NCBI GenBank assembly: GCA_039033835.1
Contig: JBCCBW010000019.1
Span: 14,036-78,035 of the forward strand
Origin: Pseudomonadota bacterium
Lineage (GTDB): Bacteria > Pseudomonadota > Alphaproteobacteria > Sphingomonadales > Sphingomonadaceae
Direction of reading: 5' to 3'
Length of the DNA stretch: 64,000 nucleotides
Shown here: positions 9,867 through 59,338 of the stretch, piece by piece
How the letters are laid out: each line of letters opens with the position of its first letter
Position numbering within the stretch: position 1 is the stretch's first letter
Notes under the pieces: model-generated
What the model saw: the letters and a program-made list of their open reading frames with translations, nothing else
Database searches by the model: none
What the model was told of the DNA's origin: nothing
Translations under genes and position numbers: made by a program

Positions 9867-10042
9867 GCGGCGTGGAAAAATTCCGTGTGGTCTCGACTTG
9901 TCCCGAAGGGATTAGGCCAAAATCCGCCCTCACGGCGTTGCGAACGCTTGAAAGTGCGCTGCACTTCCTGCGCGTCCGCGCCTTGTGAGTTGCGGATTTT
10001 GGCTCCAACCGTGATCCACACGGAATTTGTCCACGCCGCCTA
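9864..10042. mobile_element. 179-bp MITE-like nested palindromic element
   Basis: 27-bp terminal inverted repeats TAGGCGGCGTGGA(A/C)AAATTCCGTGTGG with 1 mismatch; inner IR GCCAAAATCCGC/GCGGATTTTGGC; central AAGTGC-GCT-GCACTT hairpin; no coding capacity. Confidence 0.75.
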
Positions 10043-11641
10043 AGCTTGCTCCAACTGAGAGAAATCGGTCGCAGCGATGGTGGCCAGCACTTCGCGGCGG
10101 ACTTCACGCGCTCGATCGATAGGGACGCCTGGTATCTCGAACTCTCCGCCTGCCAGGCCCAGATGCAGCGTCGCATAGCCGCGCCACCGGGCAATCGGGC
10201 CCTGAGCAATCTCTACCGAATGCAGCTTCATCCGGATGGCTATCTGGCTTTGCGGAGACAGGAACCCGCGCGTCGCCATGATTTGCGCATTATCGAGTGC
10301 GTGCCGGTGAAACGTCCAGGCGTATATGCTCGCCGCAGCGGAGATAATCGCCAGGGCACCAGGGATTGCTGCTGCCAAGATCGCCCATTCCGGAGCAAAC
10401 GCCGCCGTCGCGAAGTATGTGACGATGGCAATCACGACGTAGAACAGCGATGCGAACAGAGCGCTATCATCGCGATAGTGCTTGCTCGCGCGGTGCCAGT
10501 CGGCGCTGTCATTCGGCAATCGAAACCCGGCGCTGGCCGCAATCGGCGCGATCTCGCCCATCTTCGCAAACGGCGCGACGACGTGACTCGATGAGCCTGC
10601 ATCCTGCGCCAGACTCACGAAGCGCAGATCGTGCCAGCCGAACCGGTAACGCAGCAATCCGGTGCCGATCCTGATGCCCTGAACCCGGTGCACCGGCATC
10701 ACCACATCGGTCTTCGTCAGCAGCCCGCGCCGTCGCCTGAAACCGCGCTCGGTCCGTTCGAGCAGGAAACCCCATTCTCGCAGGAACGTGCGGATCAATC
10801 CCGTCGCCGATCCCACCACGAATACGCCGGCCAGTCCGGCCAGCGCGCCCAACAATTGCAAAGTCGCCCCCAGACCGGCCACTTCTTCCCCGCGCTCGCT
10901 CACCCAACCGGTGATCAGATCGATCGCATCGCCGATTTCGATGAAACCGTCTAGATATTGGGTCAGACCGGCGAGCACGGCGAACACCGCAAGCGAGAAC
11001 TCGAACAGGCCAAAGGTGAACAGACGCCCGGTGCCCATGGTGAACAGAGCCTCAGGCTCGGGTTCGGCTGCGTCGGCCGCGTTTACCCCATCTGCTGCGG
11101 AGACGGTCGCAACTTGCCCATCGCGCCGCTGGCGCACCAATTGCCGCAGCTGTTCGCCTTCGTCTTCGGTCAGGTAAGACAGGCTCAGATCATCGCCGCC
11201 GCCTGCGCCGGTTTCGAACTTTACCGCCACCAGCCCGAAAATCCGCGCAAGCAGCTTTTGTTCGAGGCTCACATCCTGAATGCGTTCATAGGGCACAGAG
11301 CGCGCGGCGCGGCTGAGCACCCCGCTTTCGACCCTGATATCCTGTTCGCCGACGGTGTAAGTCAGGCGCCTCCAGCCGACATAGCTGAAAAACGCACCGA
11401 TCGCGGCGATGGCCACGCCTACGCCCAGCGCGATAAAGACGGAAGAGGAGCCTTCACCGATACTGTACCCGGCAAAGATCGCAGGCAGGATTGCGTTGGA
11501 GAGGCCCGAGACCACCCCGATGAGAATGCTCAGCGGCGCCGTGCGGCGCGGTTCGCTGCCACTGTTTTCCGCATCGGCGCGCGGAATGGCCGGGGCCGAA
11601 ACTTGCGCGGACGAAGGCGGGACGAGGTCGGTCTCGCTCAC
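10040..11641 (-). CDS. PH (bPH_2) domain membrane protein, YdbT-like
   Basis: TM segments alternating with bPH_2-like repeats (RIQDVSLEQ, RVQGIRI, KLHSVEIAQGP); GTG start at 11641 coupled to the upstream stop. Confidence 0.85.
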   Translation of the reverse strand: MSETDLVPPSSAQVSAPAIPRADAENSGSEPRRTAPLSILIGVVSGLSNAILPAIFAGYSIGEGSSSVFIALGVGVAIAAIGAFFSYVGWRRLTYTVGEQDIRVESGVLSRAARSVPYERIQDVSLEQKLLARIFGLVAVKFETGAGGGDDLSLSYLTEDEGEQLRQLVRQRRDGQVATVSAADGVNAADAAEPEPEALFTMGTGRLFTFGLFEFSLAVFAVLAGLTQYLDGFIEIGDAIDLITGWVSERGEEVAGLGATLQLLGALAGLAGVFVVGSATGLIRTFLREWGFLLERTERGFRRRRGLLTKTDVVMPVHRVQGIRIGTGLLRYRFGWHDLRFVSLAQDAGSSSHVVAPFAKMGEIAPIAASAGFRLPNDSADWHRASKHYRDDSALFASLFYVVIAIVTYFATAAFAPEWAILAAAIPGALAIISAAASIYAWTFHRHALDNAQIMATRGFLSPQSQIAIRMKLHSVEIAQGPIARWRGYATLHLGLAGGEFEIPGVPIDRAREVRREVLATIAATDFSQLEQA

Positions 11642-14626: not shown

Positions 14627-15796
14627 TTATCGCCTCTGGTCGAACCGCCGCCCGACCATCGCTGCTGCAATATTCGTCTTCTGCACGTCGATCGCTCCAC
14701 CGGCGATCCCCCACGCATAAGCATCGCGCAGGCGCTGCTCCATCCCGTAATCGGTGTGGTAGCCGTATCCGCCCATCACCTGCATGCCGAGCGCGGCGAC
14801 TTCGCGCACGATTTCATTGGCGTAGCATTTGGCGAGGCTGCTCTCATAGACGGTCGGCAGCCCGTCATTCTGTTTGGCGGCGTTTGTGGCTGCGCGGTGA
14901 ATCAGCAGCCGCGCCGCATCGACCTTCATCGCCATCTCGGCGAGCTTCATCTGCACCGCCTGAAAATCCACGATCGGTTTTCCGAACGCTTCGCGCTCCT
15001 GCGTATATTGAAGCGCTTGTTCCAATGCCGCCGCCGCCACGCCGAGGCTCTGGGTCGCGTTGCCACACCGTTCCAGCCCAAACGCGCTCATCAGCTTGCC
15101 GAAGCCGCCAGCGCCGATGATGACGTTCTCGCCCGGCACTTTGACGTCCTCGATCGCATAATCGGCGGTTGGAATACCGCGAAAGCCCATCAGCTCCTCG
15201 CGCTTGCCGAACTGCATGCCTTCCATGTCTTTTTCGAGCAGGATCGCGCCGATCCCTTTCGCTCCCGGATCGTCGGTAAAGCGGCAATAGGTGACGTAAT
15301 AATCCGAATGGCCGCCGCCGCTCGTCCAGCGTTTGTAGCCGTTGACCACGTAACCGTTGCCATCCGCTGTCGCCTTTGTCGTAAGATCGGTGAGCGCGGT
15401 TCCGGCATCAGGCTCGGACATCGACACAGCGACGATCTTCTCGCCCTTGATGACCTCGGGCAGAATACGCGCTTTCATTTCCGACGAGCCGAACCGGTCG
15501 ATGGTGCGAACCGGCCCGGTCAGCGCTTCAAACACCGGGAACGCCACCGCGTTGGTTATCTGCGCAAATTCCTCAAGCACGATCAACGCCTCGATATGCC
15601 CGAGACCCAGCCCGCCATATTCGGTCGGCAGGTTCACGCCGAGGAACCCCATCTCGCCATAGGTGCGCAGCATGGCGGGCGGGACCGGATAGTCGTTCCG
15701 CTCCATGTCGCGCGCCAGCTCCGGCAGCTCGGCACGGGCGAATTTGCGGGCGGTTTCCTGCAGCTCGCGCTGCTCATCGGTCAGTGTAAAGTCCAT
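14627..15796 (-). CDS. acyl-CoA dehydrogenase
   Basis: SMSEPDAGT, NGYKRWTS, RxxFGKPI, GGYGY motifs. Confidence 0.93.
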   Translation of the reverse strand: MDFTLTDEQRELQETARKFARAELPELARDMERNDYPVPPAMLRTYGEMGFLGVNLPTEYGGLGLGHIEALIVLEEFAQITNAVAFPVFEALTGPVRTIDRFGSSEMKARILPEVIKGEKIVAVSMSEPDAGTALTDLTTKATADGNGYVVNGYKRWTSGGGHSDYYVTYCRFTDDPGAKGIGAILLEKDMEGMQFGKREELMGFRGIPTADYAIEDVKVPGENVIIGAGGFGKLMSAFGLERCGNATQSLGVAAAALEQALQYTQEREAFGKPIVDFQAVQMKLAEMAMKVDAARLLIHRAATNAAKQNDGLPTVYESSLAKCYANEIVREVAALGMQVMGGYGYHTDYGMEQRLRDAYAWGIAGGAIDVQKTNIAAAMVGRRFDQRR

Positions 15797-21006: not shown

Positions 21007-21226
21007 CTACGCATTTCTGATAGGCCCGACGCTACGGAAAACTCCGCTTTCCGCCGTCGTGTGACGATAATGCCGCACTTTGTCGCACTTACTAGCGCTT
21101 TTGCTAGATGAGCGGCGCGACCCTGCCCCTACACTTCCAATCATACCGGAAGACGCAAAATCATGCGCGCCGGCGTTGGGGAACAGGGCCTCGGCCAAGG
21201 TCGAGGCTCTATAGGGAGAGAGCACG

Positions 21227-26179: not shown

Positions 26180-26307
26180 CTATCGTCTCCCCAATCTCTC
26201 GTAGGGGAGACTAGATTTCGCACCGCACGCACGCACCGCGCCAAAGTGATAGCATCCTAGCAAAAGCGCCCCTTGTCGCCGCGGCGACCGTCCGGACAAA
26301 GTGAACC

Positions 26308-30960: not shown

Positions 30961-31341
30961 TCACGCAGCGAGGCCGGGCAGGTCGACCATCGCAGCGCGG
31001 CATTCGGCATCGGCAAGCGCGGCCACAACCGAAAGCGCGACATAGCCCGGCTCACCAATTGCTTCGATCACTTGAGCCGCCTCGGCATCTGTGATCGCGG
31101 TATGCTCGAACGGCATATGGCGGGCATAGGAGACACAGATTTGCGTGGCTTCATCATCCGACAACTCGGGCGCGGCGCCATCGCCCGGAGCGCCATCAAG
31201 GCCGTGAACCTGCGCGACTGCATGCCGTACTTGGCCGGTCAACTCTTCTCCCAGCGCTTCATGCGCAGCGTTGCGGAACGCTGTGTATTGCTCTGCGAAT
31301 GCCGGATTGCCGGATACGGCCTGCGCGACGGGGCCGTTCAT
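30961..31341 (-). CDS. AhpD/CMD-like fold protein lacking CxxC
   Basis: ITDAEAAQVIEAIGEPGYVAL resembles AhpD-like C-terminal helices; coupled (ATGA) to the upstream CMD gene. Confidence 0.55.
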   Translation of the reverse strand: MNGPVAQAVSGNPAFAEQYTAFRNAAHEALGEELTGQVRHAVAQVHGLDGAPGDGAAPELSDDEATQICVSYARHMPFEHTAITDAEAAQVIEAIGEPGYVALSVVAALADAECRAAMVDLPGLAA

Positions 31342-31877
31342 TCTGCCGCCTCCCGCTGAGTCGGTGCGGGTGTCGGCAGGACGGTGCGCTCCATCACCTC
31401 CGGCTCCAGCCCCATCGTGATCAGCGCCTTCGCCAGCGCGAGGAACAATGTGATCCCCATGCCAAGCTCGGCAATCTGCTCGGGGCTCAAGTGCTTCTGC
31501 AACGCCGCGCGCGCATCGCTTGTCAGTAAGTCGGGATCGAAGATCAGCGCATCGGTGAATTTCAGTACCGCTTTCTCCGCATCGGTCAGCTTGTCGGATG
31601 TCTCATATCCATCGGTAATGTCATCGACGATCGCCTCATTCAGCCCCTCGCCAACCGCCTTGTCGAACCGCACGTTGCGGCAGAACCCGCACTCGGTGAC
31701 ACGGGCATTGCGCATCCGCGCCACTTCCTTGAGCCGGGCGGACAAGACGTCGGAATCCCAGAATGTGCCATACAGCTCCATGAACCGGGTCGCGAGGTCC
31801 GGGTGGTGTGCCAGCACCGAACCGAGATGCGCTGGCTCGCCGGGGATCGCGGAGGATACGCGCGGGGTCGTCGACAT
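31338..31877 (-). CDS. carboxymuconolactone decarboxylase/AhpD family protein
   Basis: RLKEVARMRNARVTECGFC (CxxC), LTDAEKAVLKFTD. Confidence 0.85.
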   Translation of the reverse strand: MSTTPRVSSAIPGEPAHLGSVLAHHPDLATRFMELYGTFWDSDVLSARLKEVARMRNARVTECGFCRNVRFDKAVGEGLNEAIVDDITDGYETSDKLTDAEKAVLKFTDALIFDPDLLTSDARAALQKHLSPEQIAELGMGITLFLALAKALITMGLEPEVMERTVLPTPAPTQREAAE

Positions 31878-31998
31878 AAGTCTCTACTCCTGTGCCGGAC
31901 AGGATAGCTGAAAGCGCCCGAACCCAAGCCTCGTGATTTTCGCAGGGGAGCTCCGCGCGCTGCTCGTGGCATTGTCTGCGCAATTGAGGAGATGCAAA

Positions 31999-32367
31999 AT
32001 GCAGGGCGAAGCGCAAAGAGTGATCGAGCAATTCTGGGCTATTCAGGATGAGGGTGACTACACCAAGCTCGCGCCGTTATTCGCCGAGGATGCGTTGCTA
32101 GAAGACCCGATCTGGGGCCGATATGAGGGGCGCGAGGCGATCCTTGGCTTCATGACGACGATGGTCGCCGAAATGGGCGAACGGAAGATCAAATTCACCG
32201 TCGATGAGATTTGCGGTGACGATCATGCTGTCTGGGCGCGCTGGACCATGCATATAGGAGATGGGCACTCCCCCGAAGGCGCACGCGGCGGTGTCGGCAT
32301 CTACAAGGTCGCGAATGGCCAGCTGACCTATTATCGCGACTATATGGACCCGCCTGCCGAAGACTAA
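31999..32367 (+). CDS. NTF2/SnoaL-like protein (SnoaL_2 type)
   Basis: LFAEDALLEDP, GREAI, YYRDYMD; GAGGAG RBS before ATG 31999. Confidence 0.82.
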   Translation: MQGEAQRVIEQFWAIQDEGDYTKLAPLFAEDALLEDPIWGRYEGREAILGFMTTMVAEMGERKIKFTVDEICGDDHAVWARWTMHIGDGHSPEGARGGVGIYKVANGQLTYYRDYMDPPAED

Positions 32368-34268: not shown

Positions 34269-35898
34269 TCAGATATTCGCCCGCGCCGCAGTACGCCCTG
34301 CGATGTATCCAAAGGCCAGCGCCGGGCCGAGCGTACCACCTGCGCCTGCATAAATCCCGCCCGTTGGACAGGCGATGGCATTGCCCGCACCGTACAACCC
34401 GGCAATCGGCTCATCATTGTGGCCGAGGATGCGCGCCTGCCCGTCAGTCCGCGCGCCGCCATTAGTGCCGAGCAGGCCCATGCGGATTTCGACCGCGTAG
34501 AACGGTGCGCGCTCGACCTTACCCAATGTGACGGCGGTCCCTTCGCGCGAGCGGTCTCCGTAGAAATGATCGTAGGCGCTGGTGCCGCGGTCGAAATCGG
34601 GATCGTGCCCTGCCTCGGCATGAGCGTTGAACCGCGCGACATTTGCCGACAAAGCCCCGCATGGAACACCGATCGCATCTGCCAGTTCGACCAGCGTTTC
34701 TGCCCGCGTAACCCAGTCAGGCACTGGTTGCCCCCGGCAGGCGCGGGCCAATCGGATAGCGCTCGACATAATCGGCGTCGAACACCAGCCATGCAGGCAG
34801 GTTCGGATAGTCGTAGGTCTGCGGATCGAACTGGTGGAAAGCGCCTGCCAGCGCCGAGTAATTCGCCGCCTCGTTGCAGAACCGCTCTCCCTTGCGATTG
34901 ACCATCAGCGAATGCGGCACGGTCCGCTCGATCAGCACCGGCACGGCGCGTTGCTCGCCATCGGGCCAGGGCGCATCAGGCACGACCAGCGTCGGTGCCC
35001 ACCAGCCTTGCGTCATGTTGCCGAGTTTTGCGCCGCTCGCCATCGCCAGCGCCAGCCCCTCGCCGCGCGCGGTCGGCGGACTGGCTGGTGCATCCATCGG
35101 ACCGCGCAGGAAGGTCTGGCGTTTGTCCTCGTCCCACTCGAACCCACCGGTTGCGATGATAACACCGTTGCGAGCATTGAGCTGAAAAGGCTCGCTATCG
35201 CGCGTGCCATCAATCCCGGAGACGCGATCCGCGTCCTTCACCAATTGCTTCGTCTCGACATTCAGGATCGGCTCGATCCCACGATCCAGACAGGCTTGCA
35301 GCAGCCGCCCGATCATCGCCTGCCCGAAGCCACGTTCATTATTGGCCATGCGCCGCTGCAATTCCTCTGGCGGCACGATGCCGCTGCCTCCGCCCAAGGG
35401 CGTCTCGCGCAGCATCATCGGCTTGGGTTCTTCGATCGCGGTGATGCGCCCTGCCCATTCCTTCAACTGACCCAAAGCAAACAGATCATGATCGAGCGCC
35501 CGCCCGCCTTCGGGTTTCGCGCCGGGTCGGTCGAGATAATAGTCGGGGTAGCCATCGAGCAGCGCGACCTTCAGCGCTCCGGCACCCTCGAGGAAGGCCA
35601 GCGCCTCCGGGCCAACGTCGACAAAGGCCTCCAATGTCTCATCGACCAGATCGCCGTGGCCGAGGCTGTGGAAATAGGCGAGCGCCTCTTCGCGGCTATC
35701 CGTCATTCCTGTGGCACGCTGGCGCGGATTGTCGGGCACCCAGATTACTCCGCCGGAGATAGCCCCCGTACCGCCGATCCGGTCGAAGCGTTCGACCAAC
35801 GCGACGCTTGCCCCGGCTTCATGCGCGGCCAAGGCTGCGGTCATCCCCGCAGGTCCGCATCCCAAGACGATAACATCTACTTCGTTCATACTTGTCAT
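34269..35898 (-). pseudogene. FAD-dependent oxidoreductase, 3-ketosteroid delta1-dehydrogenase (KstD)-like; frameshifted
   Basis: two ORFs (34717..35925 and 34269..34769) are the N- and C-terminal parts of one protein: GCGPAG FAD motif, GGVIWVPDNP, YPDYY, NRKGERFCNEA, then PFYAVEI, GTNGG, GLYGAGN, YAGAGGTLGPA; removing one C from C5 at 34731-34735 restores a 542-aa frame. Confidence 0.88.
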
Positions 35899-35992
35899 AA
35901 GGACGCGCATGATGGCGGCGGGCAATTGCCCATTTTGGCAAGGTGCACTCCGCGGCGCGTATCGCTAGGCAAGCATTAAAGGGAGACAGGCC

Positions 35993-51417: not shown

Positions 51418-52320
51418 ATGGACGTATCGAAGCTGATGTTCCGCGATGGCCTGATGGACGGCGAGCGCATCCTCGTCACCGGCGGCGGCACCGGATTGGG
51501 TCGCGAAATGGCCGAAGGGTTTTTGAAGCTCGGCGCAACCGTCTACATTTGCGGACGGCGCCAGAACAAGCTGGATGAGACCGCCGCTGAGGTAATGGAA
51601 CAGCACGGCGGAAAGGTCGTCGCCCATGCCTGCGACATTCGCGATGCCGATGCAATCCATACCATGGTAGATGCGATCTGGGCCGATGGCGGAGCGCTGA
51701 CCGGTGTGGTCAACAACGCAGCGGGCAACTTCATCAGCCGCACTGAAGATCTGTCGGTCAACGGCTTCAACGCCATCGCAGACATCGTCATGCGCGGTAC
51801 GTTTTATGTGACGCTCGATATCGGCAAGCGATTAATCGAGGAAAAGAAAACCGCGAGTTTCCTTTCGATCCTCACCACCTGGGTCTGGTCGGGCAGTGCT
51901 TTCGTGGTGCCAAGCGCGATGTCGAAGACAGCGATCCACGCGATGACGCAGAGCCTCGCTACCGAATGGGGCCGCTATGGCCTGCGCTTCAACGCCATCG
52001 CGCCGGGGCTATTCCCGACCAAGGGCATGAGTGCGCGGCTATCCCCTGGCGGGCAAGGCGGCAATTCCAAAAACGATCTCAACCCGATGGGCCGTGCCGG
52101 CGAGATGCACGAACTCGCCAATCTCGCCGTGTTCCTGCTGGGACAGGGCGCGGAATATGTGAACGGCCAGACGATCGCGATCGACGGCGCAGGCTATCAG
52201 GCAAACGGCGGCACGTTCTACCCGCAGCTCCACGCGATGGGCGACAATGAGTGGGACATGATGCGCCAGATGATCAAAGGCACCAACGCCAAGGACAAGG
52301 CGGATCGGGCGACAGGGTGA
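51418..52320 (+). CDS. SDR, 2,4-dienoyl-CoA reductase-like
   Basis: TGGGTGLG, NNAAGNFI, PSAMSK (no catalytic Tyr, as in the DECR/TER subfamily). Confidence 0.85.
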   Translation: MDVSKLMFRDGLMDGERILVTGGGTGLGREMAEGFLKLGATVYICGRRQNKLDETAAEVMEQHGGKVVAHACDIRDADAIHTMVDAIWADGGALTGVVNNAAGNFISRTEDLSVNGFNAIADIVMRGTFYVTLDIGKRLIEEKKTASFLSILTTWVWSGSAFVVPSAMSKTAIHAMTQSLATEWGRYGLRFNAIAPGLFPTKGMSARLSPGGQGGNSKNDLNPMGRAGEMHELANLAVFLLGQGAEYVNGQTIAIDGAGYQANGGTFYPQLHAMGDNEWDMMRQMIKGTNAKDKADRATG

Positions 52321-52397
52321 GGGACGGAGCGCCTATAGCCGGCCAGACCCCTATCGACCCATTCTCGGTCATTCTCGAACGCCGATCACTCATCATC

Positions 52398-52928
52398 TCA
52401 ATCATTATCGAAACACCCCAAAGCCTCGAGCATGCGGAACTCTCCTAGACCGAGCGCATCAAACTCGTCTGTCTCACCTTCAGCTTCAACGCCTAATTCT
52501 GCCAAGCCTTCGCTAATAGGGGATTTGGATGCTGTGTGCCGCCCAGAAAACATGCCGCCTAGGACATTAAGCAATGATCTCTTTGTTTGCTTCGCAAACG
52601 TAGAGATCGACCGATTCCATAACATTTCACCATTCTCAAAAATAGCAGCATGTTGACTTCCCATACCGCCAAAGTAGTCGGTCTCAATGTAGATTGCTCG
52701 ACCTTGGCCTAGCCAGCGTCCAATTTCGTCGGCCATACTTTGGTTAAGGTGGCAAAAGTCGCCGATGGGTCGTTCATCCCATATACCGAGCTCATCAAGA
52801 CGCCGATCATCCAGAGGTACAATCACCAAGCCAAACGGCACTTCCGTTGGCTCCGGAGCGCCAAAACGATCAATAAGCTTGGCAAGCGTCCGTCGGTTTC
52901 CGATGAGTGCGTTTATATGGTGGCCCAT
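52398..52928 (-). CDS. hypothetical protein (lower GC)
   Basis: 176-aa ORF with IYIETDYFGGMGSQHAA; visibly more AT-rich than neighbours. Confidence 0.7.
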   Translation of the reverse strand: MGHHINALIGNRRTLAKLIDRFGAPEPTEVPFGLVIVPLDDRRLDELGIWDERPIGDFCHLNQSMADEIGRWLGQGRAIYIETDYFGGMGSQHAAIFENGEMLWNRSISTFAKQTKRSLLNVLGGMFSGRHTASKSPISEGLAELGVEAEGETDEFDALGLGEFRMLEALGCFDND

Positions 52929-53009
52929 GAGGTAGCCGTAAGCCGATCAACAACAAATTTAATGTCCACTTTCACCCGCATAATCGGATGGCGACTTCCG
53001 ACTGGATCG

Positions 53010-54632
53010 TCACTCCGTATTCTCATCCGCCAACTGCTGCGCCGTCTTGTAATCCGGCTTGCCATTGTTCAGTCGTAGGGATCGGTCGGTGAATACATAC
53101 ATTCGCGGTATCTTGTACCCGGCCAGCTCGTCGCGCGCATGGCCGTCGAGTGCCTCTTCCAATCTGTCCGGCGCACAGCCTTTGATTTCGACCACTGCGA
53201 CGACCTTCCGCCCAAACCGCTCATCGGGCAGGCTGACGACGCGCACATCGTTCACCGCCGGGTGGCTTTGCAGGACCGCTTCGACTTCTTCGGGGAAGAC
53301 CTTCTCGCCGCCCGTGTTGATGCACATATTGTCTCGGCCGATGAACTCCATCGTGCCATCGGGCGACCAACGGGCCTGATCCCCCGTCATCAACCAGCGC
53401 TTGCCGCCGATCTCGGGGAAGGTTTGCGCGTTCTTCTCGGTCTCGCCGAGATAGCCGAGCGGCAGCGGGCCGGTGCGTGCGACGATGCCCACGCCCTCTT
53501 CGCCCGGTTCGATTTCCTTCAAATTTTCGTCGAACAGTTTGGTCTCTCGCCCTGGAAGCGGCTGAAATTTGCCTCCGCCGGTCGATCCGGCGGCTGTGGT
53601 GATAACGATACCGGTGCCTGAGCTTTCGCTGGAGCCGAGCGCGTCGATGATCACCATCTGCGGATGATGGCCAAGCAACCGCTTCTTCAAGCCTTCGGAA
53701 AACACAGCGCCCGATGATGTCACCATCCGCAGGCTCGCAAGCACATCGGCCCCATCGCCGCGAGCATCCAGTCGATCGGCGAGCGGAAGCGCGAAAGCAT
53801 CGCCGACGATGAAGATACCGCGCGCACCCAGCCGCTTGACCTCGTCCAGCGCCAGATCGGCATCGAACTTCTCCGCTGGAAGCAGGGCCAGTGTCCCACC
53901 TTTCAACAGGTGGATAACGGCTGTGAATTGCCCAGCGCCATGCATCAGCGGGCTGAGCAGCAGCATCGGCGACATGCTCGCAGGATGATCGGGGCCGATC
54001 CTGGCCGCTTCATCGACCTGCGCTTCGAGCGAGGTGGCAACGAAGGGCGGCTCGCCAAAACCGCGCTGCCAGACCGAGATATTGAACGCCTGCCATGCCT
54101 CGACCATCGGCCACATCACCGCTTTGGGCATGCCGGTGGTGCCGCCGGTCGCGGTCAGGAACAGCGCCTGCGGATCGTCATTGATAGCGAAATCAGATGG
54201 CAGATCGTGCGCTCGCAATGCTGCCCAATCTGCGTGGCCGACATCGATTGTCACCGTGTCCGCTGGCATCGCCGCCGCACCCGGCTCAGCAAAGTCGCTT
54301 TCGGTGAACAGCGCCTTCAGGCCGAACCGCTCGAAGATGTCGGCGAGTTCGCGGGCCTTGTAGTGGTAGTTCACATTCACCGGAACCACGCCTGCTTTGA
54401 TGCAGCCGAAATAGGCGAGAATGTAATCGGGATTGTTGCGCAGCATCTGGCCCGCAATGTCGCCGGGTTTCAGGCCACGCTCGCTCAGGCCCGCCGCGAT
54501 TGCATCGGTTTGCGCATCCAGCTCACCCCAACTGAGCACCCGATCACCATGGACCACGGCAGGACGGTCCGGCTCGATTGCCGCAGCCAGTGCCTTCAGC
54601 GCATGACCAAAATTCTCGCCCTGCCACACCAT
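53010..54632 (-). CDS. acyl-CoA synthetase (ANL family, FadD19-like)
   Basis: TGGTTGMPK, LGSSES, TGDQA, GRDNMCINTGGEKVFPEEVE, NNGKPDY; real start ATG 54632. Confidence 0.92.
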   Translation of the reverse strand: MVWQGENFGHALKALAAAIEPDRPAVVHGDRVLSWGELDAQTDAIAAGLSERGLKPGDIAGQMLRNNPDYILAYFGCIKAGVVPVNVNYHYKARELADIFERFGLKALFTESDFAEPGAAAMPADTVTIDVGHADWAALRAHDLPSDFAINDDPQALFLTATGGTTGMPKAVMWPMVEAWQAFNISVWQRGFGEPPFVATSLEAQVDEAARIGPDHPASMSPMLLLSPLMHGAGQFTAVIHLLKGGTLALLPAEKFDADLALDEVKRLGARGIFIVGDAFALPLADRLDARGDGADVLASLRMVTSSGAVFSEGLKKRLLGHHPQMVIIDALGSSESSGTGIVITTAAGSTGGGKFQPLPGRETKLFDENLKEIEPGEEGVGIVARTGPLPLGYLGETEKNAQTFPEIGGKRWLMTGDQARWSPDGTMEFIGRDNMCINTGGEKVFPEEVEAVLQSHPAVNDVRVVSLPDERFGRKVVAVVEIKGCAPDRLEEALDGHARDELAGYKIPRMYVFTDRSLRLNNGKPDYKTAQQLADENTE

Positions 54633-54767
54633 CGCCTGAATCTCCTTTACAGTGCTCGTGGCGTAGCCAGCAGAAACCCGCAATGCCCCTGCGTAAAGTA
54701 TGAGGCGAATCACATAAGATGGGTTAGGCTGCGCGCGACGGGACTTGAGGAGAGGAGGAGCCAGACC

Positions 54768-55577
54768 ATGGCAACAAACGTAGTCGAGCTGCGCACGCCG
54801 CAGGGCCGCGAAAAGCTTGAGCAATTGCTCGAGCAGGTCACCATCACCTGCCCGGAGGACATTCACGATGCCGCTGTTGCGCTCGCCCGGATGGCGCAGG
54901 AGCGCGGGATGCAGATCGCGGTATGCGATGACATTTCCTCGAAAGAACCGATGGTCGATGCCGAAGGGACGATCCTGAACGCCGATGTATTCCGCTGGCT
55001 GGATGATGGATCGCGCTGGTGGGAGGATCATCGCCTGGCGCTGCATTCGCCCCTTCCGCGAGCGTGTCGGTATGAAAGCGAACCGTTCTGGGTGAACAGC
55101 CAGGGATTCAACACGCGCTGGCGCAATTCCTATCTGGAAGAACTGGATCTCACCGATTTCGAGAAACGATCGCTGTGCAAGGCTGCGATCGTCATTCCGG
55201 TCCACCTGCCGTTCGGCCAGATTTCCGCGAACAGCTTCATCAGCATGGACCGCGAGAAAGAGGATCTGAGCGAGGAATTCGCGACCTACGGATCGCTGTT
55301 CGCGCAGGTCACACGGCGGTTTGTGGCTGGCTATGTGCAAGCGCACCGAACCAAGCGTCGGATTCCGTCCGATTGCGTGCTGTCCAAGCGCGAAGTGGAA
55401 TGCCTGCGCTGGGCCGCGATCGGCAAAACCGACAAGGAAATCAGTATGATCCTTGAACGCAGCCACGCCACGATCCGCTATCACATCCACCGCGCTGGCG
55501 AAAAGCTGGATAGCGTGAACCGCGCGCAGACGATCTTCAAGGCGGGTCAGCTGGGGTATCTGGGGGCGAATAGTTAG
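54768..55577 (+). CDS. LuxR-family regulator (autoinducer-binding-type N-domain + HTH), no cognate luxI in window
   Basis: SPLPRACRYESEPFW and IPVHLPFG N-domain; LSKREVECLRWAAIGKTDKEIS HTH; strong GGAGG RBS before ATG 54768. Confidence 0.92.
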   Translation: MATNVVELRTPQGREKLEQLLEQVTITCPEDIHDAAVALARMAQERGMQIAVCDDISSKEPMVDAEGTILNADVFRWLDDGSRWWEDHRLALHSPLPRACRYESEPFWVNSQGFNTRWRNSYLEELDLTDFEKRSLCKAAIVIPVHLPFGQISANSFISMDREKEDLSEEFATYGSLFAQVTRRFVAGYVQAHRTKRRIPSDCVLSKREVECLRWAAIGKTDKEISMILERSHATIRYHIHRAGEKLDSVNRAQTIFKAGQLGYLGANS

Positions 55578-55588
55578 GGTTATTTGTC

Positions 55589-55812
55589 TTTCGCACCCGC
55601 ATCCGCGGGCGCGTCCTCGCTAGACGTCCTCCGCTTCGCTACGGACCCGCTGCGGGCGGGCGGTCGCCCTTGCGACGCCTGCGGCGTCGAATTAGCGCTT
55701 CCTTGGCGGCTTGGTGGCGGAGCACGGTCGCGATAGCGGACCGGCCGCCCGCAGCGACGCGACCTTCAGGTCGCATGAGCGAGGATATCGCAGCCCGGAT
55801 GGGCTGCGGAAA
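55589..55812. repeat. about 220-bp nested inverted repeat (REP/MITE-like) between convergent genes
   Basis: GCTGCGGGCGGGCGGTC vs GACCGGCCGCCCGCAGC arms; TCCTCGCT vs AGCGAGGA; internal GCGACCT-TC-AGGTCGC hairpin. Confidence 0.65.
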
Positions 55813-56346
55813 TCAAAGACTCCTCAACGGCTCGCTCCCATCCCAGTCCTCGCCAGCCTGCTTGATCATCGCAAACAGCCCTGGTCCGGCTTCACCCTGT
55901 TGCAGGATTTCCACCAAGCTACCTGGCCCTTGTCCCGGATCGACATAAATCACCCGGCTGTCTCCGAGCGATCCCTCGATCACAATCTCAGCACACTGTT
56001 CGCCGCAGACGCGATACGCCTCTTCGATATCGTCGACGAGAATGCAGACATGGTGCAGCCCATCATTCACAGCCGCATATTCACCCGAATAGATCGACGG
56101 GTGATCGTCGCGTGGGCGGATCAGCTCGATCTGGAGATCGCCCCAATAGGCCAACGCGAGATCGAAAACGGCCTCCGTAGGTTCACCGTGGTACTTCATG
56201 CCTTCCAGATGAATGCCCTCCATCAGGAAGAATGGCCCTACGCCCATCACCTCGGTCCAGTGCCTGACCGCAGCGTCGAAATCCTTCGGCACAAAGGCAA
56301 GCTGCATTACCTCCCCCAGCCCTGCAATTCCTCCTGCGCGCGCCAT
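55813..56346 (-). CDS. VOC/glyoxalase family protein (2)
   Basis: MQLAFVPKDF, LQIELI, GLHHVCILVDD, LVEILQ; GGAGAGG RBS before ATG 56346. Confidence 0.85.
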   Translation of the reverse strand: MARAGGIAGLGEVMQLAFVPKDFDAAVRHWTEVMGVGPFFLMEGIHLEGMKYHGEPTEAVFDLALAYWGDLQIELIRPRDDHPSIYSGEYAAVNDGLHHVCILVDDIEEAYRVCGEQCAEIVIEGSLGDSRVIYVDPGQGPGSLVEILQQGEAGPGLFAMIKQAGEDWDGSEPLRSL

Positions 56347-56447
56347 GAATCCTCTCCAATCCGATAGTGTGACCGCAGGGCGAACCTGTGTGATATTCTC
56401 TCCAACGGACACTGCACAAAGTGCGAGGAATCAGGATCACACCCGCC

Positions 56448-57872
56448 ATGAACGAGATCAAAGACATCAAACGCCAAGATCGCTGCCCGGGCATGACCTA
56501 TACCGACATGCTCGAAGGCGACACGCGCACGCCGCCGGATTACCTGTTCGAAGAAACGAACATCGACATGCCGAACGATCCGCTGCCGATCGAGCCGTAT
56601 GTGAGCGAGGAATATGCAGCGCTCGAACGCGAGAAGCTGTGGCCGAATGTCTGGCTGTTCGCCGCGCGCGAGGATGAGCTGCCCGATCCCGGCGACACGG
56701 TCGTGTTCGAGATCAACGAGAAAAGCTTCCTGATCACCCGCCAGCGCGACGGCAGCGTGCGCGCGTTCTACAATGTTTGCCTGCACCGCGGACGCAAGTT
56801 GCGCACCGAAGATGGCAACACCACGCAGTTCCGCTGCCCGTTCCACGGCTTCACCTGGAAAACCGATGGATCGCTGAAAGAAATTCCGTGCGAATGGGAC
56901 TTCAAGCATTTGCAGGACAAGGACATGAGCCTGCCCGAAGTTCGCGTCGAGCTGTGGCAGGGCTTTGTGATGATCACCGAGAACGCCGATCTGCCGGACT
57001 TCAAGACCTGGCTCGGCCCGGCAGCCGATCACTACGACAATTACGACATGGAAAACCGCTACACCGGCATGTGGGTCGCGCGGAAGATCCCGGCCAACTG
57101 GAAGGCCACAGCCGAGGCCTTCATGGAAGCGTGGCATTCAATCACCACGCACCCGCAATTGCTGCCGTTTCTCGGCGATGCCAACAGCCGCTACGACCTG
57201 ATCGGCGACCACTTCAATCGTGCGATCACTCCGTCAGGCGTGCTCAGCCCGCATCTCAAGGGCAAGACTCAGCAATATGTGCTCGACAAGATGGCTGAGT
57301 TCTCCGGTGGATCGGATGCCGAGACCAATCGCCGCTATGCCGCGAGTGAGGAGCAGGTCGAGATCGACGAGAGCGATCCGTTGCAAGCGCGCAAGCTGTT
57401 GGCCGAGGCCAGCCGGGCTGGCTTCGCCGAAGCATATGGCCACGATTATTCGGACAAGTCGGACTCCGAAATTCTCGACAATTTCACCTACAACATCTTC
57501 CCCAACTTCGCGCCGTGGATCGGGTATCTTCCGACGCTGTGCTACCGCTGGCTGCCCGGCGACACGCCCGATTGGTGCGTGATGGAGATCCGCTTGCTGT
57601 TCCCGACGCCCAAGGGCGAGAAGCGACCGCGCGCAGTCGAGAAGGTCACTATTCCCGAAGACCAACCCTTCGCCTGGGCCAAGGATGTCATGGGCGAAGC
57701 GCTGGCGGGTGTGTTCGATCAGGACATGGCGAACCTGCCGCATGTGCAGACGGGCATGAAGGCATCGGGCAACGGGATCATGGAACTCGGCGCGTATCAG
57801 GATAGCCGTGTGCGCCATTTCCAGACGACTTTGCGGAAATATATCGACGGCGAGCTGCCAGCCGCTAAGTAG
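56448..57872 (+). CDS. Rieske non-heme iron oxygenase alpha subunit (3)
   Basis: CLH...CPFH and EAWHSITTH motifs, DQDMANL. Confidence 0.92.
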   Translation: MNEIKDIKRQDRCPGMTYTDMLEGDTRTPPDYLFEETNIDMPNDPLPIEPYVSEEYAALEREKLWPNVWLFAAREDELPDPGDTVVFEINEKSFLITRQRDGSVRAFYNVCLHRGRKLRTEDGNTTQFRCPFHGFTWKTDGSLKEIPCEWDFKHLQDKDMSLPEVRVELWQGFVMITENADLPDFKTWLGPAADHYDNYDMENRYTGMWVARKIPANWKATAEAFMEAWHSITTHPQLLPFLGDANSRYDLIGDHFNRAITPSGVLSPHLKGKTQQYVLDKMAEFSGGSDAETNRRYAASEEQVEIDESDPLQARKLLAEASRAGFAEAYGHDYSDKSDSEILDNFTYNIFPNFAPWIGYLPTLCYRWLPGDTPDWCVMEIRLLFPTPKGEKRPRAVEKVTIPEDQPFAWAKDVMGEALAGVFDQDMANLPHVQTGMKASGNGIMELGAYQDSRVRHFQTTLRKYIDGELPAAK

Positions 57873-57880
57873 CTCTGTCC

Positions 57881-58633
57881 ATGAGCATCTCTGTCGACCT
57901 CTCCGGGCGCAATGCGCTGATCACCGGCGCATCTTCGGGCCTTGGATCTCGTTTTGGGCGCATCCTCGCTGCAAATGGAGCGAATGTCGCGCTGGGCGCC
58001 CGGCGCAAAGATCGGCTTGAGGCGTTGGCCAACGAGATTGGGCCGCAAGCCGCTGCGGTAGAGATGGATGTGGCGCGCGAGGCAGATATCGTCGCGGGCT
58101 TCGACGCTGCCGAGCGGGCTTTCGGAACCATCGATACAGTGATCGCCAATGCCGGTGTCGATGGCGCGGGCATGATCAACGATATGTCCGAAGAGGAAAT
58201 CGAGCGGACGCTGGCGATCAATCTTAAGGGGGCAATCCTGACCGCTCGCGAAGGTGCCAAGCGTATGATCGCTGCGGGCAATGTGAAGGGCCGGATCGTG
58301 ATGATCGCCTCGATCACCGCTTTCGAACCCTCGCCTGGTCTGGTTGCCTACTCGGCCAGCAAGGCCGGCGTAGTGCAGGCGGCGCGCAGCATGGCCCGTG
58401 AATGGGCGCGCGCTGGTATCTGCGTGAACACGATCTCCCCCGGCTACATCCGCACTGCGATCAACGACGAATGGTTCGACACCGATCTCGGCAAGAAGCA
58501 AATCGCGCGCTTTCCCAAGCGCCGGTTGATGGCGGAAGAAGGGCTGGACGGCCCGGTGCTGTTCCTGTGCTCCGATGCAGGGGAGTTTGTGACGGGCGCC
58601 GATTTCGTGCTGGATGACGGGCAGACGTTATAG
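57881..58633 (+). CDS. classical SDR
   Basis: TGASSGLG, ANAG, YSASK. Confidence 0.92.
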   Translation: MSISVDLSGRNALITGASSGLGSRFGRILAANGANVALGARRKDRLEALANEIGPQAAAVEMDVAREADIVAGFDAAERAFGTIDTVIANAGVDGAGMINDMSEEEIERTLAINLKGAILTAREGAKRMIAAGNVKGRIVMIASITAFEPSPGLVAYSASKAGVVQAARSMAREWARAGICVNTISPGYIRTAINDEWFDTDLGKKQIARFPKRRLMAEEGLDGPVLFLCSDAGEFVTGADFVLDDGQTL

Positions 58634-58645
58634 GGCAAAAGTTCC

Positions 58646-59338
58646 ATGCCGCATGACCGCAAGCTCTTTATCGCCTCGCCATCGATTGGCGTGAACCCTT
58701 CGGATTTCGAGTTCTTCGAAGAGCAGCGCCTCCATCGCGAAGCTGATCATTCCGCAAGGCCTCTGCACACGCAGACTGGAAACAAGGCTGCTACTCGTTT
58801 TGGTCTTCCCCAATACAAGGAAACGCCGCGTTTAAAGGTCGCACTTAAAAACAAACCGCTCGACTTCTATGGCTTCGAGCGCTGGATTCTCTCTTCGCGA
58901 GCTAAGGACCTGTTGCATGCGATGGACCCAGCCGCCTTCGATTTCAGGAAATGCGAAACAAGCGCACCGCCCCGACACAACATTGACAATTATTGGATTG
59001 GGAAGGTGCGCCGCGTGATCGAGGAATTCGACCGTGGTGCCTCGAACTTCGAAAAAGCGGGTAGGCAGTGGGATGTCGGTTTAGAAGAGTGGACTTTCAA
59101 TCACGCGATCAGAAAGCTGAACACATTGGTGCTTCATCCCGGACACGAGGAATCGTTGGCGTTCTATATCCTCGATTATTCTCTCTACCCCATTTTTGAT
59201 GGGCGGCTCGTCGAGGCAATCCGGGGTGCAGGGCTACGCGGCCTGATGTTCTCTCCGTTGCAATGGCCGGACAAAGGCGATGTGAGAACTGTCTACATCG
59301 AGAACTACGGCTACTGGAAGGATCAAGGCGCGCTATAG
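58646..59338 (+). CDS. hypothetical protein, Imm11/DUF1629-like
   Basis: WILSSRAKDLLHAMDPAAFDFRKC...YWIGKVRR pattern resembles DUF1629/Imm11 proteins; lower GC. Confidence 0.55.
   Translation: MPHDRKLFIASPSIGVNPSDFEFFEEQRLHREADHSARPLHTQTGNKAATRFGLPQYKETPRLKVALKNKPLDFYGFERWILSSRAKDLLHAMDPAAFDFRKCETSAPPRHNIDNYWIGKVRRVIEEFDRGASNFEKAGRQWDVGLEEWTFNHAIRKLNTLVLHPGHEESLAFYILDYSLYPIFDGRLVEAIRGAGLRGLMFSPLQWPDKGDVRTVYIENYGYWKDQGAL

Follow-up and report, generated by a model that had tools for sequence, protein, structure and literature searches.

A LuxR-type receptor with replaced signal-binding residues in a catabolic island of a marine Erythrobacter, and three candidate operator boxes

In TraR and LasR, two receptors for N-acyl-homoserine lactones (AHLs), Asp70 and Trp57 hydrogen-bond the amide and the lactone of the signal molecule. 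The lux-type operators of such regulators are inverted repeats of 18–20 bp centred near −42.5, with CT-N12-AG as their minimal form. LuxR "solos" with an altered pocket are common in genomes, and few of them have a known ligand or regulon. PluR and PauR sense an alpha-pyrone and a dialkylresorcinol through changes in a six-residue motif, and keep Tyr61 and Asp70, while regulators of the TeiR type carry a LuxR-type helix-turn-helix. Here we describe a luxR-family gene at 54768–55577 (+) of a 64-kb stretch of contig JBCCBW010000019.1, hereafter the window, in which the protein has the fold of a quorum-sensing receptor, has lost most of the residues that mark an AHL pocket, and is encoded within a large catabolic island. 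The closest proteins and loci are those of Erythrobacter and Porphyrobacter and the DNA sequencing runs that carry the sequence are marine metagenomes, which identifies the host as a marine Erythrobacter.

Several groups of LuxR proteins that depart from the AHL receptors have been described. The solos of plant-associated bacteria (OryR, XccR, PsoR, NesR and PipR) do not respond to AHLs; they combine W57M with Y61W and keep D70 (PMC4288048, PMC4338825). Gan et al. 2015 (PMC4288048) reported atypical LuxR homologues in sphingomonads, and Hudaiberdiev et al. 2015 (PMC4338825) a D70S group of rhizobial solos. The homologues in these two surveys are alphaproteobacterial and carry Y61W together with substitutions at D70 and W85; the authors suggested that they do not recognise AHLs and that their ligands are of another kind. 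Both surveys started from InterPro or Pfam matches to the autoinducer domain, and neither found a conserved gene neighbourhood or function. In PluR and PauR of Photorhabdus the AHL-receptor fold has been retuned to another small molecule (cited in PMC4288048). The steroid and bile-acid clusters of proteobacteria are controlled by TeiR/TesR of Comamonas testosteroni and by TeiR-like regulators, which respond to pathway substrates (PMC8399759). Our literature search found no characterised homologue of the present protein, no paper on its family, and no LuxR regulator in the steroid or bile-salt clusters of sphingomonads.

The gene starts at the ATG at 54768, preceded by GGAGAGGAGG with a GGAGG ribosome-binding site, and specifies 269 amino acids. 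The helix-turn-helix (amino acids 204–257, 55377–55538, +) matches the GerE/LuxR model of Pfam (PF00196) with 48.6 bits. The preliminary description of this DNA had called it intact, which it is: the TraR DNA-binding residues E178, L182 and G188 correspond to E209, L213 and G219, and these columns are conserved in 56, 55 and all 60, respectively, of 60 relatives (24–91% identity) from which we built a family profile. The N-terminal ligand-binding-type domain (approximately amino acids 20–195, 54825–55352, +) scores 17.9 bits with Autoind_bind (PF03472) over amino acids 85–166, under the cut-off of 23. The same model is matched by 32 of the 60 relatives at E ≤ 0.01, the best with an E value of 5.5e-17. 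A search of the chains of the PDB with the single sequence aligned mainly the helix-turn-helix. With the family profile the alignments reach into the ligand domain, and the hits include QscR (8.5e-26), LasR (1e-22) and TraR (4e-15). An AlphaFold2 model made with the family alignment as input has a mean predicted local distance difference test score (pLDDT) of 90.7 and a predicted template modelling (TM) score (pTM) of 0.83. In a Foldseek comparison of this model with the PDB, ranks 1–33 are all taken by AHL-type receptors (QscR, TraR, SdiA, LasR, RhlR and CviR), with TM scores of 0.60/0.67 for QscR and a TMt of 0.60 for the ligand domain of LasR. Because the profile matches, the structural comparison and the Autoind_bind matches of the relatives agree, fold and homology establish the protein as a divergent quorum-sensing-type receptor that the curated Autoind_bind model narrowly misses. 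An exhaustive search for relatives, from which the 60 sequences of the profile were drawn, gave 90 representatives of clusters at E ≤ 1e-30; at E ≤ 1e-10 there were 365.

The ligand-domain residues were assigned by aligning the 60-sequence profile to TraR and LasR (sequences identical to PDB 1H0M_A and 6MWH_A). Y53 of TraR corresponds to W77, W57 to G81, Y61 to W85, D70 to S94, P71 to P95, W85 to V109 (with W108 one residue before it) and G113 to A140. Among the six AHL hallmark residues (W57, Y61, D70, P71, W85 and G113) only P71 is thus retained, or at most two of the six if a shift of one residue is allowed. The alignment to LasR yields the same register as that to TraR, and the three independent hidden Markov model alignments, to QscR, LasR and TraR, are concordant. 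The assignment of D70 to S94 is robust since the proline that follows is conserved. The loss of Tyr61 and Asp70, the latter read as "HSP instead of DP", had been proposed before, and it is borne out by the formal alignment; both residues are replaced in either register. The peptides quoted at the time are likewise all present (R83-W84-W85, S94-P95, P106-F107-W108 and P144-V-H-L-P-F-G150). The tryptophan of RWW had been taken for the equivalent of W57; in the profile register it is W85 that falls at Tyr61, with W77 at Tyr53.

The replacements recur throughout the family. Tryptophan occupies the W77 column in 55 of the 60 relatives and the W85 column in 53; the D70 column holds serine in 39 and aspartate in one, and the next column holds proline in 50. 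The set as a whole (W77, W85, S94-P95, W108 or W109, and A140) persists in relatives from 91% to as little as about 24% identity, with tryptophan and glycine returning in the TraR W85 and G113 columns of the more distant ones. R101 and H146 are conserved as well. Since these substitutions are conserved across the 60 relatives they are, judged from the sequences, a family signature and not decay.

The genes of the window were called by codon usage and all were scanned against Pfam. The first 14.4 kb hold housekeeping genes, including those for cytochrome bc1, aminopeptidase N and an autotransporter, whereas positions 14627–63725 form one catabolic island of about 49 kb. Its oxidative enzymes comprise four Rieske alpha subunits in total, two cytochromes P450, a KstD-like flavoprotein and a molybdopterin oxidoreductase. 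There are also six acyl-CoA dehydrogenases, two acyl-CoA ligases and one DUF35-thiolase pair. Further genes specify many short-chain dehydrogenases (SDRs), at least seven SnoaL/limonene-epoxide-hydrolase (LEH)-like proteins, two ThuA-like proteins and an E1 dehydrogenase set, and transport is represented by a TonB-dependent receptor and a transporter of the major facilitator superfamily (MFS). No island enzyme, among ten tried, reached an NCBIfam equivalog cut-off; the second ligase alone passed a cut-off, that of the generic subfamily PRK06187. The best partial NCBIfam similarities were to KstD/4-oxocyclohexanecarboxylate dehydrogenase, PimD-like acyl-CoA dehydrogenases and lipid-transfer thiolases. 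From this mix of enzymes we infer that the island, a conserved pathway of the Erythrobacteraceae, degrades a compound of alicyclic, terpenoid or steroid-like type in a CoA-dependent manner. The gene for the KstD-like FAD-binding flavoprotein is split (34269–35925, −) into an N-terminal part of 402 amino acids (34717–35925) and a C-terminal part of 166 (34269–34769), with about 50 nt of overlap and a change of frame between them; either an assembly error introduced a frameshift or the gene is a pseudogene.

The claims that the window has no luxI and that the LuxR protein is the only regulator in about 48 kb both hold at the Pfam level of detection, for open reading frames (ORFs) of at least about 60 amino acids within the window. 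No called gene matches Autoind_synth, the LuxI family, and none besides luxR matches TetR, LysR, IclR, MarR, GntR, AraC or another transcription-factor family. The gaps between the called genes gave no further regulator candidate. A LuxI gene was also absent within 10 kb of the relatives' genes in four other loci (L082–L084 and L087) and from the shorter contig of a fifth (L086).

Relatives of the protein are encoded in 513 stretches from species-representative genomes, confirmed by tblastn, and synteny and identity were followed in the best 80 of these (85–95% LuxR identity). Here the order of genes is nearly invariant: a ligase gene divergent from luxR, then a convergent glyoxalase-family gene, and a Rieske oxygenase gene followed by an SDR gene, both in the direction of luxR. 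Over the 80 loci the median identity is 90% for the whole LuxR protein (87% for the ligand domain and 97% for the helix-turn-helix), 79% for the ligase, 78% for the Rieske oxygenase and 75% for the glyoxalase-family protein, values in which the standing of LuxR relative to its neighbours is inflated because the loci were picked by LuxR similarity. These figures suggest that LuxR is under purifying selection.

The AMP-forming acyl-CoA ligase (53010–54632, −; 540 amino acids; Pfam AMP-binding and AMP-binding_C) resembles the PRK07798 type of NCBIfam with 480 bits, under the model cut-off of 543, and a spacer of 135 bp separates it from luxR. It adjoins luxR in 77 of the 80 Erythrobacter/Porphyrobacter loci and is not its neighbour in L082, L083, L084 and L086. 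The preliminary description had made much of this divergent pair; the arrangement is real here and is confined to the Erythrobacter/Porphyrobacter clade. In Parerythrobacter jejuensis (75% LuxR identity) and Novosphingobium ginsenosidimutans (85%) luxR instead directly follows an operon running from a molybdenum oxidoreductase to an acyl-CoA dehydrogenase, with the glyoxalase and Rieske genes still after it. In a gammaproteobacterium of the Porticoccaceae (59%) it is followed by Rieske and NmrA genes. Two Porticoccaceae metagenome contigs (L084 and L085, luxR relative at 10001–10813) also carry nearby an MFS gene, a second Rieske gene, an acyl-CoA dehydrogenase-DUF35-thiolase group, SDRs and an HpcH/HpaI-type lyase. 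Such a similar gene set suggests that the regulator and part of the pathway were transferred together between classes or are ancient. A relative at 47% identity lies between acyl-CoA dehydrogenase/thiolase and DUF35-thiolase-acyl-CoA dehydrogenase genes, with SnoaL, SDR and P450 genes, and one at about 27% lies in a different catabolic cluster. All relatives of at least 47% identity that we examined are found amid acyl-CoA dehydrogenases, DUF35-thiolase pairs and SDRs; some of the loci also have Rieske oxygenases, SnoaL-like proteins, P450s or MFS transporters. The adjacency of a Rieske gene to luxR holds in the Erythrobacteraceae and the Porticoccaceae. The stable partner of luxR is therefore the catabolic gene set, plus the Rieske oxygenase in closer relatives, and not the ligase. 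The suggestion that the product of the ligase is the ligand is left unsupported by the Parerythrobacter, Novosphingobium and Porticoccaceae loci, where the ligase is not beside luxR, and it is weakened because ligase adjacency is restricted to one clade while the linkage to Rieske, acyl-CoA dehydrogenase and DUF35-thiolase genes persists.

Two conserved blocks in the spacers on either side of luxR are versions of one 17-nt motif, CTGC-RY-AAAGT-RY-GAGG (general form CTGC-N2-AAA-N4-GAGG). A search of the window with CTGCNNAAANNNNGAGG, allowing one mismatch, gave three matches, all exact and all in divergent spacers, against about 1.08 expected by chance. Across the 80 luxR loci, each of 12.8 kb, the pattern occurs only at the two expected sites, with no extra copies. 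Boxes a and c contain the minimal CT-N12-AG form.

Box a (CTGCGTAAAGTATGAGG, 54689–54705, +), an exact match to the pattern in the spacer between ligase and luxR, is the most conserved block in about 77 orthologous spacers, where it reads CCCCT(A/G)CGTAAA....GAGG. A −10-like hexamer, TAGGCT (54725–54730, +), lies 19 nt downstream and by its likeness to the consensus might belong to the luxR promoter; a TAnnnT hexamer (TAGTCT or TAGGCT) is present at the same 19-nt gap in 40 of 71 orthologous spacers. Box b (CTGCACAAAGTGCGAGG, 56412–56428, +), also exact, lies in the spacer of the glyoxalase and Rieske genes, ending 19 nt short of the ATG of the latter, and is conserved in some 73–76 orthologous spacers within the block ACACTGCACAAAGTGCGAGG. 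The same spacer holds a second block, CTGTGTGATATTC (56385–56397), which is nearly invariant in the alignment of orthologues. It is possibly an extended −10 element, given its resemblance to TGnGATATT, and would then put box b in the 5′ leader of the Rieske transcript. Box c (CTGCGAAAATCACGAGG, 31929–31945, −), again an exact match, is found in the divergent spacer between an AhpD/CMD-like gene (31338–31877, −) and a SnoaL-like gene (31999–32367, +). It is conserved as CCCCTG(C/T)GAAAATGGCGAGG in 23 orthologous metagenome loci, and in 22 of these 23 spacers TATCCT follows 22–23 nt downstream. Its score with a position weight matrix, 16.8 bits, only equals the best match in 30 random windows.

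A matrix made from box a alone had returned itself and one weak match, and was superseded by the two-site matrix and the explicit pattern. The idea that one box serves two symmetric divergent promoters was also discarded, there being no TAnnnT-type element on the opposite strand at sites a or c. A search of the luxR spacer for inverted repeats, a sigma-70 consensus scan of 54500–56600 and an Rfam scan of 52300–56600 gave nothing. The word CAAA(A)GTG, pointed out in the preliminary description and part of box b, occurs six times in 2.8 kb of intergenic DNA (five regions), against 0.37 expected from Markov shuffles, at 26242, 26297, 37660, 40054 and 56417 on the forward strand and at 21076 on the reverse. 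CGGACAAA(A)GTG is common to two spacers, and so is CTAGCAAAAGCGC to two. The word might mark a promoter-proximal element akin to box b but more widespread, with more promoters involved; this is a lead only, as the pattern was chosen post hoc.

Given the receptor fold, the replaced AHL residues, the lack of a LuxI nearby and the catabolic gene context, a non-AHL ligand related to the pathway would be the most economical reading. We accordingly propose, with a probability of roughly 50%, that the protein is a small-molecule-responsive regulator of the LuxR type which answers to such a ligand and acts locally through the CTGC-N2-AAA-N4-GAGG box. The ligand would be a small molecule other than an AHL, the most plausible candidates being the substrate of the island pathway and an intermediate early in it, and the protein would bind the 17-nt boxes; binding to the boxes, binding of the ligand, its identity and the direction of regulation are all predictions. 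Three units would be targets: luxR with the ligase, the glyoxalase and Rieske-SDR genes, and the AhpD-like/SnoaL-like pair. The centres of boxes a and c lie about 40–43 nt upstream of putative transcription starts, which is the geometry of class II activation at lux boxes and by analogy would point to activation. Through box a the protein would regulate its own gene and probably also the divergent ligase, for which we claim no promoter, and through box c it would control the AhpD-like/SnoaL-like pair. Box b would lie inside the Rieske promoter or 5′ leader, since it ends 19 nt before the Rieske ATG without a −10-like element downstream, and a protein bound there may repress or act differently.

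The earlier view of a non-AHL sensor tied to the cluster is likely to be right in this general form, on the strength of the fold, the residues and the context, its weakened part being the ligase product as ligand. The results lend no support to the eukaryotic signal that it also named. "Master" control of the cluster is another matter: across the 64 kb, no more than three promoters have the only strongly conserved candidate operator, and two of these sites flank luxR. A local regulator, probably one that responds to a metabolite, fits the evidence better than a master switch.

A number of observations weigh against the proposal of a local regulator responding to a pathway ligand. The register at W57 is less secure than elsewhere, as the ungapped profile alignment crosses a loop with about four extra residues in the query; compared with LasR these fall between strand 2 and the Ser-Pro. 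The exact box is absent from L082, L083 and L084, with just a diverged form (ACTGCGCAA...) upstream of the Rieske gene in L082 and L083 (Parerythrobacter and Novosphingobium). The box is not a dyad, as lux boxes usually are. No −10-like element was found downstream of box b in any of 73 spacers, so that one mechanism does not fit all three sites. The box is assigned to LuxR by proximity and by there being no other regulator in the window, and it could be the site of a regulator or sigma factor from another part of the genome. None of the RNA-seq runs searched for the sequence of the locus carries it. The choice of loci by LuxR similarity, noted above, also belongs here.

Three other explanations deserve consideration. 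The receptor-like domain might serve only for folding or dimerisation in a ligand-independent regulator that binds DNA constitutively and is controlled by its level of expression or by a partner protein. Five of the six hallmark residues of the ligand domain are gone, strong conservation of the domain is equally to be expected of a dimerisation module, and a box in the luxR promoter region would permit control by autoregulation alone. We nevertheless consider this unlikely. The replacements are not random: relatives as distant as about 24% identity have settled on the same Trp, Trp and Ser-Pro, suggesting that a pocket has been maintained. The family also shades without a break into genuine Autoind_bind domains, and catabolic islands normally need a substrate-responsive switch, for which the window offers no other regulator. 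Far less probable still is a residual receptor for AHLs or AHL-like acyl-amides that eavesdrops on other bacteria or on a LuxI encoded elsewhere in the genome. Although the fold and the nearest structural relatives are those of AHL receptors, and a distant luxI is possible because the search covered 64 kb of the genome, the positions of Asp70 and Trp57 are here Ser and Gly, Asp recurs in one relative of 60, LuxI is missing from the window and from around the annotated relatives' loci, and the linkage is to catabolic genes, which are not typical targets of quorum sensing.

The third explanation concerns the boxes and overlaps the others. They might belong to another factor, be it a regulator or alternative sigma factor from outside the window or an element acting at the RNA level, with LuxR having other targets. 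In its favour the box lacks symmetry and in all three cases points to the gene downstream, box b stands in the Rieske leader 19 nt from the ATG, and no box precedes luxR in loci without the adjacent ligase. Yet luxR has a box on either side, and the island that contains these two and the third has LuxR as its sole recognisable regulator. The Rfam scan around luxR gave no match, and a small hairpin (GCAC-AAA-GTGC), possible in box b, is impossible in boxes a and c, which argues against a shared RNA structure. On balance we find this, too, an improbable account of the boxes.

Of the genes next to luxR, the glyoxalase/VOC-family gene (55813–56346, −; Pfam Glyoxalase_4) is convergent with it and divergent from the Rieske gene. 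Its start was placed at 56346 from GGAGAGG-N5-ATG, and it is syntenic in 77 of the 80 loci as well as in L082 and L083. The Rieske oxygenase alpha subunit (56448–57872, +; Pfam Rieske and Ring_hydroxyl_A) has no NCBIfam equivalog. Its start at 56448 is backed by conserved N-terminal peptides and by third-position-biased substitutions among orthologues. A later start, at the Met at 56493, would have rescued the class II geometry at box b and was rejected: the MNEIK... peptide is conserved with third-position-biased substitutions, and this Met is Ile or Leu in most orthologues. The SDR gene directly 3′ of it (57881–58633, +; Pfam adh_short) is syntenic in most loci and likely forms one operon with the Rieske gene. 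Between this pair and the SnoaL/E1-dehydrogenase genes lies a gene for an Imm11-family polymorphic-toxin immunity protein (58646–59338, +; 230 amino acids; Pfam 55.9 bits), where the local G+C content is slightly lower (0.581). It has no relative in any of the 80 orthologous loci, so that the island, conserved otherwise, seems to have gained it by an insertion specific to this strain. A second strain-specific insert is an ORF of 176 amino acids just downstream of the ligase (52398–52928, −), which matches nothing in Pfam or NCBIfam and is missing from the 80 loci.

More broadly, and tentatively, the protein may represent a widespread, unrecognised family of marine alpha- and gammaproteobacteria, the 90 representatives at E ≤ 1e-30 each standing for a 50%-identity cluster, which turned the quorum-sensing fold into a sensor of catabolic substrates. 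It would have a Trp, Trp, Ser-Pro pocket, an alicyclic, terpenoid or steroid-like acid or its CoA thioester as ligand, and the asymmetric CTGC-N2-AAA-N4-GAGG operator; on present evidence this wider picture is possible rather than probable. If true, LuxR solos of carbon degradation in the ocean would for the first time have a defined class of ligands and a defined regulon. The family is tractable, with hundreds of species of Erythrobacteraceae as well as Porticoccaceae, a similar set of oxygenase and beta-oxidation genes, and three conserved candidate operators. Its main value lies in a concrete, testable operator and in cultured strains that carry orthologues, among them Erythrobacter sanguineus DSM 11032, E. 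ramosus JCM 10282, E. dokdonensis DSW-74 and E. donghaensis DSM 16220. Knowing the ligand would indicate which compound abundant marine heterotrophs degrade by means of this large island, and would show whether the fold of the quorum-sensing receptors is routinely reused as a nutrient sensor.

Among described systems, the AHL receptors (TraR, LasR, QscR, SdiA, RhlR and CviR) share with the Erythrobacter protein the two-domain architecture, the fold and the E178/L182/G188 residues. They differ in that five of the six invariants of the ligand domain are replaced here, Autoind_bind scores below its cut-off, the window has no LuxI, the candidate box is not a dyad and the genomic context is catabolic. 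Boxes a and c are placed like the lux, las and tra boxes, about 40–43 nt upstream of the putative start. With the LuxR solos of plant-associated bacteria the protein has Y61W in common; unlike them it has W57G and D70S, no adjacent proline iminopeptidase gene, a marine host, and a linkage to oxygenase and beta-oxidation genes. PluR and PauR have another replacement motif and different ligand-producing genes, and lack a catabolic linkage. The likeness to TeiR is one of function alone, that of a regulator of a catabolic cluster, and was judged from its description, that of a larger protein and a kinase-like sensor with polar localisation. The atypical homologues of the alphaproteobacterial surveys likewise have Y61W and substituted D70 and W85; by their description the Erythrobacter LuxR is set apart from them in failing the autoinducer-domain cut-off and in having a conserved catabolic neighbourhood.

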